A stretch of DNA of 64,000 bases from assembly GCF_013167455.1 (NCBI RefSeq), contig NZ_CP038328.1. The stretch is one strand, 5' to 3'. The stretch comes from Escherichia coli O157:H7. Lineage in GTDB: Bacteria > Pseudomonadota > Gammaproteobacteria > Enterobacterales > Enterobacteriaceae. Below the pieces are notes generated by a model that made no database searches, was not told the origin of the DNA, and was given only the letters and a program-made list of their open reading frames with translations. Shown here piece by piece: positions 15,860-63,625 of the stretch (position 1 is its first letter; every line of letters begins with the position of its first letter). The position numbers and the translations under genes are program-made.

Positions 15860-16051
15860 CTAACGTTGTACCGGTGATTCGACGGAGAGTGTGGATTGCT
15901 GAGCTTCTTTTTTGCTCTGATGGTGCTGCCAGGCACCGACGGACGAGTAGATAAAACGGCCAAAGAAGAAGATAAAGCTGATGAGCAGTACGATACGGGT
16001 CATGCGACTGTTAAATCGGTGTCGTTTTCGCATACTGGTTGCCTGACTCAC
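15860..16051 (-). CDS. yfgG: YfgG, small membrane protein
   Basis: Track ORF 63 aa with one hydrophobic helix; lies in an AT-rich region, so coding status is less certain. Confidence 0.65.
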   Translation of the reverse strand: MSQATSMRKRHRFNSRMTRIVLLISFIFFFGRFIYSSVGAWQHHQSKKEAQQSTLSVESPVQR

Positions 16052-16261
16052 AAAAGGTTCCTTGAAGTATGTCCCACGCCGTGGACGGTACTTACATTAA
16101 GGCACAACAGGACAAAATGGTCAATTCTTCGTTATGTAAAAAATCGTCAGTGGATACATATTTTAATGTTATGGAAGTTAATTTAATTATTTACAATGAT
16201 GATGTAATAATGATGAATTAACATGATAAACGTAATAATTCATTAATCAGGGTTATTTTGT

Positions 16262-16275
16262 TTGATATATATCAA
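16262..16275 (+). promoter_or_regulatory. FNR box TTGAT-ATAT-ATCAA upstream of pdeF, with candidate -10 TAGAAT at 16297-16302
   Basis: Perfect TTGAT-N4-ATCAA palindrome; centre about 32 bp upstream of the -10 candidate, as for class II FNR promoters; 128 bp upstream of the pdeF ATG. Confidence 0.55.
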
Positions 16276-16402
16276 TTGGAACTTTCATATGACACTTAGA
16301 ATCAATGCTCTCTATAGTGATGAATAATCATCATTCGAAGTCAGGTGGGATGCCTGTCTGAATACACCTCCTTCAGGATGTGGGGGATTCTGCTGAGCAT
16401 CT

Positions 16403-18646
16403 ATGAAACTGAATGCAACTTATATAAAAATACGTGATAAATGGTGGGGGCTTCCGCTGTTCCTGCCTTCTTTAATCTTGCCCATTTTCGCCCACATTAA
16501 TACTTTCGCGCATATTTCTTCCGGTGAGGTTTTTCTCTTTTATCTGCCTCTGGCACTGATGATCAGCATGATGATGTTTTTCAGCTGGGCGGCATTGCCA
16601 GGGATCGCCTTAGGGATTTTTGTCCGCAAATATGCAGAGCTGGGTTTTTACGAAACGCTCTCATTAACGGCTAATTTTATTATCATTATCATTCTCTGTT
16701 GGGGCGGTTACAGGGTCTTTACTCCCCGGCGTAACAACGTTTCACATGGTGATACCCGTTTAATTTCCCAGCGTATATTCTGGCAGATTGTGTTTCCTGC
16801 AACGCTGTTTCTGATACTTTTCCAGTTTGCTGCATTTGTAGGATTACTGGCGAGCAGAGAAAATCTGGTTGGCGTCATGCCTTTTAATCTCGGGACCTTA
16901 ATCAATTATCAGGCCTTACTGGTGGGCAATCTGATTGGTGTCCCGCTGTGCTACTTCATCATTCGGGTAGTGCGAAATCCGTTTTATTTACGTAGTTATT
17001 ATTCGCAATTAAAACAGCAGGTTGATGTCAAAGTCACCAAAAAAGAGTTCGCACTCTGGCTGCTGGCATTAGGTGCTTTACTGTTGCTGTTATGCATGCC
17101 GTTAAATGAAAAAAGCACAATTTTTAGCACCAATTATACCTTGTCATTATTGCTGCCCCTGATGATGTGGGGAGCGATGCGCTATGGTTATAAGCTGATT
17201 TCGCTGCTCTGGGCGGTCGTGTTGATGATCAGCATCCACAGCTATCAAAATTACATTCCCATTTATCCTGGCTATACCACGCAGCTGACCATAACCTCCT
17301 CCAGTTATCTGGTATTCTCTTTTATTGTCAATTATATGGCTGTACTGGCAACCCGTCAGAGAACGGTAGTCAGACGCATTCAGCGCCTTGCGTATGTGGA
17401 CCCGGTGGTTCATCTGCCAAATGTTCGCGCCCTGAATCGCGCGTTGCGTGATGCCCCCTGGTCTGCGCTTTGTTATTTACGCATCCCTGGCATGGAAATG
17501 CTGGTTAAAAACTATGGCATCATGCTGCGGATTCAATACAAGCAAAAACTTTCTCACTGGCTGTCACCCTTGCTGGAACCAGGTGAAGATGTTTATCAGC
17601 TTTCGGGTAACGATCTCGCGCTGCGACTGAATACAGAATCGCACCAGGAGCGCATTACCGCACTGGATAGCCATCTCAAGCAATTTCGTTTCTTTTGGGA
17701 TGGCATGCCGATGCAACCGCAGATTGGCGTCAGTTACTGCTATGTGCGCTCGCCAGTGAATCATATCTACCTGCTGCTGGGAGAGCTAAATACGGTCGCC
17801 GAACTTTCCATCGTGACCAACGCCCCGGAAAATATGCAGCGTCGCGGGGCAATGTATTTGCAACGCGAATTGAAAGATAAAGTCGCGATGATGAATCGAC
17901 TACAGCAGGCGCTGGAACACAACCATTTTTTCCTGATGGCCCAGCCGATTACCGGTATGCGTGGTGATGTTTACCATGAAATTCTTCTGCGCATGAAAGG
18001 TGAGAATGATGAACTAATCGGCCCCGATAGCTTCTTGCCGGTCGCGCACGAATTTGGTTTATCGTCGAGTATCGACATGTGGGTCATTGAGCATACGCTG
18101 CAATTTATGGCTGAAAACAGAGCGAAGATGCCCGCTCACCGTTTTGCTATTAATCTGTCTCCAACCTCGGTATGTCAGGCTCGTTTTCCTGTTGAAGTCA
18201 GTCAGTTGCTGGATAAATATCAGATTGAAGCGTGGCAACTTATTTTTGAAGTCACCGAAAGTAATGCTCTGACCAATGTTAAGCAGGCGCAAATCACCTT
18301 GCAGCATCTTCAGGAATTAGGCTGCCAGATTGCGATTGATGATTTCGGCACCGGCTACGCCAGCTATGCGCGGCTTAAAAATGTGAATGCCGATCTGCTT
18401 AAAATTGACGGCAGTTTTATCCGCAATATTGTGTCAAATAGTCTGGATTATCAGATAGTGGCATCGATTTGCCACCTGGCGCGAATGAAGAAAATGCGGG
18501 TAGTGGCAGAGTACGTTGAAAACGAAGAGATCCGCGAGGCGGTGCTCTCTTTGGGGATCGATTATATGCAGGGTTATCTTATTGGTAAGCCGCAACCGTT
18601 AATTGATACGCTGAATGAAATCGAACCCATTCGCGAAAGTGCCTGA
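16403..18646 (+). CDS. pdeF: c-di-GMP phosphodiesterase PdeF/YfgF (MASE1, degenerate GGDEF, EAL)
   Basis: Track ORF 747 aa; N-terminal multi-TM region, C-terminal EAL domain. Confidence 0.9.
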   Translation: MKLNATYIKIRDKWWGLPLFLPSLILPIFAHINTFAHISSGEVFLFYLPLALMISMMMFFSWAALPGIALGIFVRKYAELGFYETLSLTANFIIIIILCWGGYRVFTPRRNNVSHGDTRLISQRIFWQIVFPATLFLILFQFAAFVGLLASRENLVGVMPFNLGTLINYQALLVGNLIGVPLCYFIIRVVRNPFYLRSYYSQLKQQVDVKVTKKEFALWLLALGALLLLLCMPLNEKSTIFSTNYTLSLLLPLMMWGAMRYGYKLISLLWAVVLMISIHSYQNYIPIYPGYTTQLTITSSSYLVFSFIVNYMAVLATRQRTVVRRIQRLAYVDPVVHLPNVRALNRALRDAPWSALCYLRIPGMEMLVKNYGIMLRIQYKQKLSHWLSPLLEPGEDVYQLSGNDLALRLNTESHQERITALDSHLKQFRFFWDGMPMQPQIGVSYCYVRSPVNHIYLLLGELNTVAELSIVTNAPENMQRRGAMYLQRELKDKVAMMNRLQQALEHNHFFLMAQPITGMRGDVYHEILLRMKGENDELIGPDSFLPVAHEFGLSSSIDMWVIEHTLQFMAENRAKMPAHRFAINLSPTSVCQARFPVEVSQLLDKYQIEAWQLIFEVTESNALTNVKQAQITLQHLQELGCQIAIDDFGTGYASYARLKNVNADLLKIDGSFIRNIVSNSLDYQIVASICHLARMKKMRVVAEYVENEEIREAVLSLGIDYMQGYLIGKPQPLIDTLNEIEPIRESA

Positions 18647-52624: not shown

Positions 52625-53752
52625 TCACGCGACGAGCTGTTCCATGATACGTTGATACATACGGGCAAGTAGCTGCAGGTCGGCAGCGTTCACACATTCA
52701 TTAATTTTATGAATAGTGGCATTGACCGGCCCGAGTTCCACCACCTGCGCCCCCATGCGGGCAATAAAGCGCCCGTCGGACGTTCCGCCTGTGGTCAGTA
52801 GCTGCGGTTTAATTTCATTATAGTGCTCAACCGCGTTAACGACCGCATCCACCAGTTTACCGCGCGCGGTCAAAAATGGCTGCCCGGAAAGCCACCAATC
52901 CACCGTATAGCGCAGTTGATGTTTTTCAAGCAGGGCAAGCACCTGCGCTTTGATCATCTCATCAGTCAGTTCGGTGCTGAAGCGGAAGTTAAACTGCACA
53001 AACAGTTCACCCGGAATAACGTTGTTACTGCCCGTTCCCGCCTGAATATTGGCAATCTGCATACTGGTCGCCGGGAAGAATTCATTGCCCTGATCCCACT
53101 CAATAGCCACTAATTCATTAAGGAAAGGTGCTGCGCGATGTACCGGATTGTCAGCCAGATGTGGGTAGGCAACATGCCCCTGAACGCCATGAATGGTTAG
53201 GTTGCAGGTTAACGATCCACGACGACCATTTTTCACCACATCACCTACCACTTCGATACTCGACGGTTCGCCGACCAGGCAGTAATCGAGACGCTCATTA
53301 CGTGCCATTAACGCTTCGACGGCTTTTACCGTACCATTGTGGGCACTGGCTTCTTCATCAGAGGTGATCAGAAATGCCAGTCGCCCTGTATGGTTGGGAT
53401 GTTGTGCGACAAAACGTTCTGCAGCTACCACCATCGCCGCCAGCGAGCCTTTCATATCTGCCGCACCGCGCCCGAATAACATGCCGTCACGAATGGTTGG
53501 TTCAAACGGCGGATTGATCCAACGATCGGCGTCGCCAGGCGGCACCACGTCGGTATGCCCGGCAAAGGCCAATGTTTCACCTTGCCCACGCCATGCCCAA
53601 AAATTCTGCGTATCGGCAAAGTCCATGCGTTCAACGGTAAAACCGATCGCCTGCAAACGTTCAATCAACAAAGCCTGGCATCCTGCGTCATCAGGACTCA
53701 GGGAAGGGCGGCGAATAAGCTGTTGTGTCAGCTCAATAACCGGGCACGACAT
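52625..53752 (-). CDS. dapE: succinyl-diaminopimelate desuccinylase
   Basis: Track ORF 375 aa; M20 peptidase family. Confidence 0.95.
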
Positions 53753-62581: not shown

Positions 62582-63625
62582 ATGCGCTATCGCATTTTCC
62601 TTCTCTTTTTTTTCGCTTTGTTGCCGACGTCTTTGGTGTGGGCGGCACCAGCGCAACGGGCGTTTTCCGACTGGCAGGTCACCTGTAATAACCAAAACTT
62701 CTGCGTGGCGCGTAATACGGGCGATCATAATGGACTGGTGATGACCCTGAGCCGCAGCGCCGGGGCGCATACCGATGCCGTTTTACGTATTGAGCGCGGC
62801 GGGTTGAAGTCGCCGGATGCGTCTGAAGGGGAAATTGCGCCACGGCTGCTGTTAGATGGCGAGCCGTTGGCGTTAAGTGGTGACAAGTGGCGGATTTCAC
62901 CATGGTTATTAGTAACCGATGATACGGCAACCATCACCGCGTTTTTGCAGATGATTCAGGAAGGGAAGGCGATCACCTTACGCGACGGCAATCAGACCAT
63001 TTCTCTGAGTGACTTAAAAGCGGCGTTGTTGTTTATTGATGCTCAGCAAAAGCGCGTTGGCAGTGAAACCGCGTGGATCAAGAAAGGGGACGAACCGCCG
63101 CTCAGCGTACCGCCCGCGCCTGCGCTGAAAGAGGTCGTGGTGGTTAACCCAACGCCGACGCCACTCTCACTCGAAGAACGCAACGATTTGCTGGATTATG
63201 GAAACTGGCGGATGAATGGTCTGCGCTGCTCGCTTGATCCATTGCGTCGTGAGGTGAATGTCACTGCGCTGACTGATGATAAAGCGCTGATGATGATTAG
63301 CTGTGAGGCAGGGGCCTATAACACCATTGATTTGGCATGGATTGTGTCGCGTAAAAAGCCGCTGGCCTCGCGCCCGGTCCGGCTGCGTTTGCCGTTCAAC
63401 AACGGTCAGGAGACGAATGAACTGGAACTGATGAACGCAACATTTGATGAGAAATCGCGTGAACTGGTGACCTTAGCGAAAGGGCGCGGATTAAGCGATT
63501 GTGGCATTCAGGCGCGCTGGCGCTTTGACGGTCAGCGTTTTCGCCTGGTGCGTTACGCCGCAGAACCCACCTGCGATAACTGGCATGGGCCAGACGCCTG
63601 GCCCACGTTGTGGATCACCCGTTAA
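62582..63625 (+). CDS. ypfG: YpfG, periplasmic DUF1176-type protein of unknown function
   Basis: Track ORF 347 aa; N-terminal signal peptide; several Cys pairs. Confidence 0.85.
   Translation: MRYRIFLLFFFALLPTSLVWAAPAQRAFSDWQVTCNNQNFCVARNTGDHNGLVMTLSRSAGAHTDAVLRIERGGLKSPDASEGEIAPRLLLDGEPLALSGDKWRISPWLLVTDDTATITAFLQMIQEGKAITLRDGNQTISLSDLKAALLFIDAQQKRVGSETAWIKKGDEPPLSVPPAPALKEVVVVNPTPTPLSLEERNDLLDYGNWRMNGLRCSLDPLRREVNVTALTDDKALMMISCEAGAYNTIDLAWIVSRKKPLASRPVRLRLPFNNGQETNELELMNATFDEKSRELVTLAKGRGLSDCGIQARWRFDGQRFRLVRYAAEPTCDNWHGPDAWPTLWITR

Follow-up and report, generated by a model that had tools for sequence, protein, structure and literature searches.

The perfect TTGAT-N4-ATCAA palindrome TTGATATATATCAA at 16262-16275 (centre 16268.5; no strand assigned) is in all probability the FNR-binding site of a class II FNR-activated promoter for the c-di-GMP phosphodiesterase gene pdeF (yfgF). 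The -10 hexamer of this FNR-dependent promoter, recognized from sequence, PMC3718329 and conservation, is TAGAAT at 16297-16302 on the plus strand. The site and its link to anaerobic expression are already known: publication in 2010 was followed by genome-wide confirmation in 2013. Our comparative check adds that the box and its exact 21-nt register are kept across the Enterobacteriaceae, with a built-in negative control; it also sets the FNR promoter clearly apart from that of yfgG and from the sigma70-alone promoter that has been predicted, and provides a pointer to a conserved, unexplained structure in the pdeF leader.

The window, by which we mean the whole 64-kb stretch of Escherichia coli O157:H7 DNA that was analysed, contains pdeF on the plus strand at 16403-18646 (ORF list, Pfam, RefSeq), followed by ppx. 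That this is the gene downstream of the box, as the original prediction had it, is borne out by the domains of its full 747-aa product (MASE1, 1.5e-70; EAL, 7.4e-71; Pfam) and by its annotation as pdeF in E. coli genomes 100% identical over the stretch, where yfgG lies divergently at 15860-16051. An N-terminal extension of PdeF is ruled out by an in-frame TGA at 16394. In the otherwise identical strain E. coli O157:H7 PV15-279 (L001 5869-7082), an IS3-family transposase stands directly 3' of pdeF, and the annotated CDS is 2214 nt versus 2244 nt in the window, which points to insertion of an IS at the gene's 3' end.

The window carries the O157:H7-type allele, which differs from K-12 MG1655 at three positions in the 392 bp from yfgG to pdeF (16080, 16144 and 16280), with no indels. 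None of these differences falls within the box or the -10 hexamer, and the only one in the promoter spacer is at 16280 (A in the window, T in K-12). Because there are no indels and both elements are identical in K-12, the K-12 literature and coordinates carry over directly, and the box maps to 2627089-2627102 of U00096.2. RefSeq O157 genomes also list a 50-aa hypothetical protein, WP_000017561.1, at 16069-16221 on the plus strand between yfgG and pdeF; the call overlaps the yfgG promoter and the AT-rich tract described below, K-12 has no such gene, and the call is probably spurious.

The FNR box and its -10 hexamer

The palindrome, a 10/10 consensus match, and TAGAAT both lie exactly where the original prediction had placed them, the hexamer starting 21 nt past the end of the box; the centre-to-centre distance of 31 bp is near the 32 bp or so that had been claimed from box centre to -10. 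TTGATATATATCAA is the only perfect TTGAT-N4-ATCAA site in the window, and dinucleotide shuffles of the window held a mean of 0.11 perfect boxes, with at least one in 10 of 100 shuffles; a perfect match by itself, at a window-wide p of about 0.1, is thus only modestly unlikely. With one mismatch tolerated, the window has three boxes against 2.7 expected, which is the chance level. Two one-mismatch FNR-like boxes, TTGATGTTTTTCAA and TTGATGCTCAGCAA, lie at 52916-52929 and 63036-63049. Since the raw palindrome match is only mildly improbable, its meaning must be drawn from its context, and what raises TTGATATATATCAA above chance is where it lies and how it is conserved rather than the match as such.

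Conservation was followed through pdeF loci from 14 lineages (five Escherichia, E. fergusonii, four Citrobacter, Salmonella, Enterobacter soli and two further relatives); four more distant orthologues were added later, and near-identical E. coli copies were merged for the statistics. A protein-query contig scan found Escherichia and one Citrobacter, and was supplemented by look-ups of encoding contigs and by a DNA-motif scan of metagenomes. The query of this last scan, an 18-mer from an Enterobacter-type leader, matched 75 loci, 61 of them unique and complete, which divided into 47 pdeF-type leaders and 14 unrelated chance matches of the 18-mer that serve as a negative control.

In all 14 lineages, the pdeF locus carries an FNR-type box no more than one mismatch from the consensus, 136-149 nt 5' of the called ATG. 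Boxes of this quality also occur in 45 of the 47 metagenomic pdeF leaders, and so in 59 of 61 when lineages and unique metagenomic leaders are pooled. The hexamer TANAAT follows the box by exactly 21 nt in all 47 metagenomic leaders and in 61/61 overall, with T1, A2, A4, A5 and T6 invariant, while among the 14 unrelated matches the best "box" had three to five mismatches and the hexamer was found in none. When 10 divergent lineages were compared over 144 columns, anchored on the box and without gaps, column identity was 0.96 and 0.94 in the two half-sites and 0.95 in the -10 hexamer (the best six-column window of the 144), against about 0.65 in the 21-nt spacer and 0.53 in the sequence past the hexamer; 33 distinct spacers occur among 41 metagenomic pdeF leaders. 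A box and -10 hexamer conserved in fixed register over a diverging spacer without a -35 are the signature of a class II activator-dependent promoter. Two metagenomic leaders of a single lineage (L052 and L094) have a left half-site degraded to TTGCG, giving TTGCGTTAGGTCAA, and keep both TAAAAT at +21 and the leader hairpins; from its sequence, this lineage may be a natural variant no longer under FNR control.

Published work on K-12 describes the same element. The passage on yfgF in PMC3718329 (Lacey et al. 2013), citing Lacey 2010 (Lacey, Partridge & Green, Microbiology 156:2873), gives an FNR box TTGAT--ATCAA at -41.5 and a -10 TAGAAT in a class II promoter, activated by FNR and maximally expressed anaerobically. 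Box, hexamer and gene are those of the window, whose allele departs from the K-12 promoter by the one spacer difference and in nothing substantive. The same passage has Salmonella keeping the arrangement (TTGAC--ATCAA, TACAAT), which we saw independently in locus L009, and a RegulonDB curation paper enters FNR as an activator of yfgF under anaerobiosis. The class II site at -41.5 upstream of pdeF in the original prediction agrees with this assignment and with the invariant box-to-hexamer register.

An FNR ChIP experiment, which the original prediction had named as a check, is also in the literature: an in vivo anaerobic peak (2627146) at yfgF/yfgG was called from ChIP-seq by MOSAiCS, NCIS and CisGenome and from ChIP-chip by CMARRT (Myers 2013, PMC3688515, Table S5). 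The predicted site under this peak is TTGATATATATCAA (PatSer 16.08, ln p -14.9; Tables S5/S6), with a score among the higher ones of the Table S6 matches listed. The estimated target is yfgF, for which one known TSS is given, citing Lacey 2010, and Table S5 records the peak as absent from an earlier FNR ChIP-chip study.

Against this background, it is hardly credible that AT-rich DNA has produced the palindrome by chance and that it does nothing in regulation, or that it is a CRP site instead. A perfect box does turn up in one shuffle in ten and the region is only 20-28% GC, but the in vivo peak at the locus speaks against coincidence, as do half-sites that persist in 59/61 leaders while flanks and spacer diverge, and 14 negative-control contexts without a box. 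Read as a CRP site (TGTGA-N6-TCACA), the palindrome has one mismatch in one half and two in the second, and it has the T by which FNR sites are told apart. As far as these data go, ChIP and conservation exclude both readings.

In class II FNR promoters the site lies at about -41.5, as in narG, dmsA and nirB, or at -40.5 in yfiD (grcA). The pdeF promoter shares with these canonical examples a box over the -35 position, no good -35 and a -10 hexamer about 21-22 nt past the box; unlike them, it pairs a perfect box with weak, condition-dependent output and apparent damping by H-NS/StpA. No second FNR site and no NarL or IHF site was identified at the pdeF promoter, and neither yfgF nor yfgG has a row in the ArcA ChIP supplements searched for co-regulation or in a Shigella fnr RNA-seq supplement.

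Without oxygen, FNR carries a [4Fe-4S] cluster and dimerises. The geometry, the conservation and the published -41.5 position suggest that an FNR dimer on TTGATATATATCAA would occupy the place of the missing -35 and bring sigma70 RNA polymerase to TAGAAT at 16297-16302. Transcription would then start at about 16309-16310 and pass through a leader of some 93 nt into pdeF.

Transcription start and neighbouring promoters

The pdeF transcription start is predicted at 16309-16310 on the plus strand, 7-8 nt past the -10 hexamer, from geometry and from the published position of the box. Setting the hexamer at -12 to -7 gives a start at 16309 and a box at -40.5, and adopting the published -41.5 gives 16310; in K-12 U00096.3 these positions are 2629032 and 2629031, respectively. 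A hairpin lies 5-9 nt past the predicted +1 in about 12 of the 14 lineages, which fits a transcript 5' end near 16309. The 21-nt spacer (16276-16296, plus strand), which diverges between lineages, lacks a functional -35: its best -35-like hexamer, TTGGAA at 16276-16281, is only 15 nt from the -10. A weak or absent -35 implies activator dependence, as for class II promoters.

A different possibility is that pdeF is transcribed mainly from an activator-independent sigma70-type promoter on the plus strand at 16289-16318 (ATGACA at 16289-16294, 18 nt, TATAGT at 16313-16318), starting near 16325, and that FNR at about -56.5 is incidental or modulating. We consider this unlikely, and -56.5 is not a standard FNR activation position. 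The ATGACA-18-TATAGT pair is the only one to pass a sigma70 consensus scan (10/12 matches), and the same pair is named for yfgF in a genomic SELEX study where sigma70 holoenzyme alone selects the spacer (PMC3946193); the finding of no fnr effect in wild type (Myers 2013) also favors such a promoter. However, the SELEX assignment is a best-match prediction in a bound spacer that also contains the strong yfgG promoter, which could explain the signal. The two hexamers are moreover unconserved outside Escherichia, with identities of 0.68 (-35) and 0.50 (-10) against the invariant TANAAT at +21, and their Citrobacter counterparts read GTGATA and GTATGG. A start near 16325 would land within the conserved 5' hairpin of the leader, and PdeF protein was undetectable in the cultures of PMC5635695, where the gene is cited as anaerobically induced, which counts against a constitutive promoter. 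ATGACA-18-TATAGT may be a minor basal promoter in E. coli, beside the FNR-dependent class II promoter that we favor for pdeF.

The divergent gene yfgG has a promoter of its own on the minus strand at 16089-16124, with a -35 TTGACC (16124-16119), a 17-nt spacer, a -10 CTTAAT (16101-16096) and a TSS at about 16089 (PMC3946193, PMC4447067), the last corresponding to 2627275 in U00096.2 (PMC4447067). A very strong anaerobic sigma70 ChIP-seq peak (2627279; Myers 2013, PMC3688515) and an EsigmaS-bound region coincide with this promoter, and an EsigmaS-bound region adjoins the FNR box. The sigma70 ChIP list of the same study has no separate peak at the pdeF promoter, the nearest being the strong one at yfgG.

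It is very unlikely that the FNR site serves yfgG instead of pdeF, or both genes from one symmetric site. The FNR ChIP peak carries the annotation yfgF/yfgG, wild-type expression of yfgG is about 2.2-fold higher without oxygen (ratio 0.45 in Table S12; Myers 2013, PMC3688515), and in E. coli and three Citrobacter a weak mirror hexamer, AATTAT, stands on the minus strand at 21 nt from the box. Yet the TSS, sigma70 peak and hexamers of yfgG are all about 180 bp from the box, whose centre at -179.5 falls outside class I and class II positions, and C. rodentium, Enterobacter and others lack the mirror hexamer. The fnr-dependent table of Myers 2013 does not include yfgG, and yfgF is the target assigned there. 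Bidirectional class II activation of yfgG was therefore rejected, given an unconserved mirror hexamer and a separate promoter about 180 bp away from which yfgG would be transcribed without being driven by the box; pdeF remains the gene to which we assign the FNR site.

Conditional output of the pdeF promoter

The part of the original prediction that concerned anaerobic, FNR-dependent pdeF expression holds with a qualification. Anaerobic activation by FNR is supported by PMC3718329 and the RegulonDB curation, but yfgF, though FNR-bound, showed no fnr-dependent change in wild-type cells in anaerobic glucose minimal medium (Myers 2013, Table S9, PMC3688515). In an hns/stpA mutant, the FNR peak average at yfgF rose from 0.35 to 1.68 (Table S7) and the yfgF +O2/-O2 ratio was 0.23 (Table S11, captioned as mutant-only changes). 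Since anaerobic induction is thus listed for the hns/stpA mutant, the AT-rich pdeF promoter looks H-NS-damped. In this respect yfgF, through its entries in Tables S7, S9 and S11, resembles the other H-NS/StpA-affected FNR promoters of Myers 2013 (PMC3688515); unlike the fully masked FNR sites of that study, its site is already occupied by FNR in wild type.

The likely substrate for damping by H-NS/StpA is an AT-rich tract (20-28% GC in the composition profile; no strand assigned) at 16100-16300, 5' of and including the box, although we infer H-NS binding to these particular bases. H-NS is flagged for the yfgF spacer in the sigma70 SELEX paper (Shimada 2014, PMC3946193), and no nucleoid-protein overlap was called at the yfgF FNR site in Table S6 of Myers 2013 (PMC3688515). 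As the published tables show, H-NS/StpA lower FNR occupancy and mask anaerobic induction during exponential growth in glucose minimal medium. By EMSA, BasR also binds the pdeF promoter, and in APEC it represses about 2.3-fold (PMC12419081). Class II output by FNR, damped through H-NS/StpA and probably further inputs, is the best-supported picture of this promoter; its condition-dependent output is a nuance on known biology and no contradiction of it.

Two AT-rich blocks stand 5' of the box, at 16192-16221 (TACA(A/T)T.ATAAT...TAATGATAAC) and 16230-16253 (GTAATAATT.ATTAATGAGG). Escherichia, Citrobacter and the further relatives conserve both, whereas C. rodentium and Enterobacter soli either lack them or have them out of register; Salmonella departs from the register in the second block (16230-16253) only. 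The blocks are candidates for H-NS nucleation or for binding by another regulator, such as BasR, given its binding by EMSA (PMC12419081).

The pdeF 5' leader

The predicted 5' leader of pdeF (about 93 nt, 16310-16402, plus strand) comprises, by alignment and folding, a 5'-proximal hairpin, two further hairpins and a conserved start region, all on the plus strand. The 5'-proximal hairpin, the palindrome TGATGAATAATCATCA at 16316-16335, begins 7 nt past the predicted +1. Counterparts occur in about 12 of the 14 lineages, with z-scores mostly about -2 to -3.5, and their stems vary (GAUGA/UCAUC, AUGGC/GCCAU, GUUGCG/CGCAAC, CGUGUA/UGCACG); the element may stabilise the 5' end of the mRNA or act as an operator. 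Hairpin 1, CAGG[UGGGAUG]CCUG, lies at 16342-16356 with a GGA at 16348-16350 in its loop, and hairpin 2, CCUCC[UUCAGGAUGU]GGGGG, lies at 16367-16386 with a loop GGA at 16376-16378.

The last 65 nt or so 5' of the ATG are conserved as far as Enterobacter-like lineages, and more tightly than the promoter spacer. We traced the leader hairpins in L007, L009-L016 and L018-L021 and in metagenomic loci L022-L096. Hairpins 1 and 2 can be drawn in all the sequences compared; each of the 14 lineages and every metagenomic leader keeps the GGA of both loops, while other loop bases vary, and the hairpin-2 stem covaries, its fourth pair being U-A, A-U, G-C or C-G. Folded as a whole, the leader does not exceed shuffles in stability (z = -0.40), and the RNAalifold consensus consists of G.U-rich long-range pairing with one compensatory pair only. 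We prefer the local hairpins to this long-range pairing, treating the modelled structure as tentative. An Rfam search of the leader gave no credible match (best E-value 1.4). A reading of ATGCCTGTCTGA as a uORF was ruled out, since its ATG is ATA in two lineages.

The leader from 16316 to 16402 might be a post-transcriptional control element recognised by CsrA, or by another protein or an RNA that binds GGA or SD-like motifs; judged from its sequence, this is a possibility that we raise with considerable reserve. GGA in hairpin loops is a hallmark of CsrA sites, and the leader shows the CsrA-type arrangement of two GGA motifs in hairpin loops, 28 nt apart, a spacing that a CsrA dimer could bridge. 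The E. coli pdeF loop CAGGAUGU also resembles the CsrA SELEX consensus. Jonas et al. (2008) are said to have described CsrA-regulated leaders in the c-di-GMP genes dgcT/ycdT and dgcZ/ydeH; like them, pdeF encodes a c-di-GMP enzyme and has two loop GGAs in its 5' leader. The usual mode of CsrA repression, by contrast, places a site on the SD or start codon, and the pdeF leader has no conserved GGA there: the conserved GGAs lie about 25 and 53 nt 5' of the AUG, neither overlapping the Shine-Dalgarno region, and a further GGA that E. coli has closer to the SD (16385-16387) is unconserved. The CsrA CLIP/RNA-seq supplements of PMC5694010 and PMC6347204, in possibly incomplete form, contain no rows for yfgF, pdeF, b2503 or STM2503, and pdeF is poorly expressed in such cultures. 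A literature search found no paper linking CsrA with pdeF or yfgF. SD-like standby sites or an sRNA target are alternative readings of the leader.

If the leader does act in this way, it would add a third layer of control on PdeF synthesis, over FNR activation and H-NS damping, and might explain the low exponential-phase output despite a perfect FNR box. The FNR site itself ties oxygen sensing to c-di-GMP turnover, and with it to motility, surface properties and peroxide tolerance in enteric bacteria.
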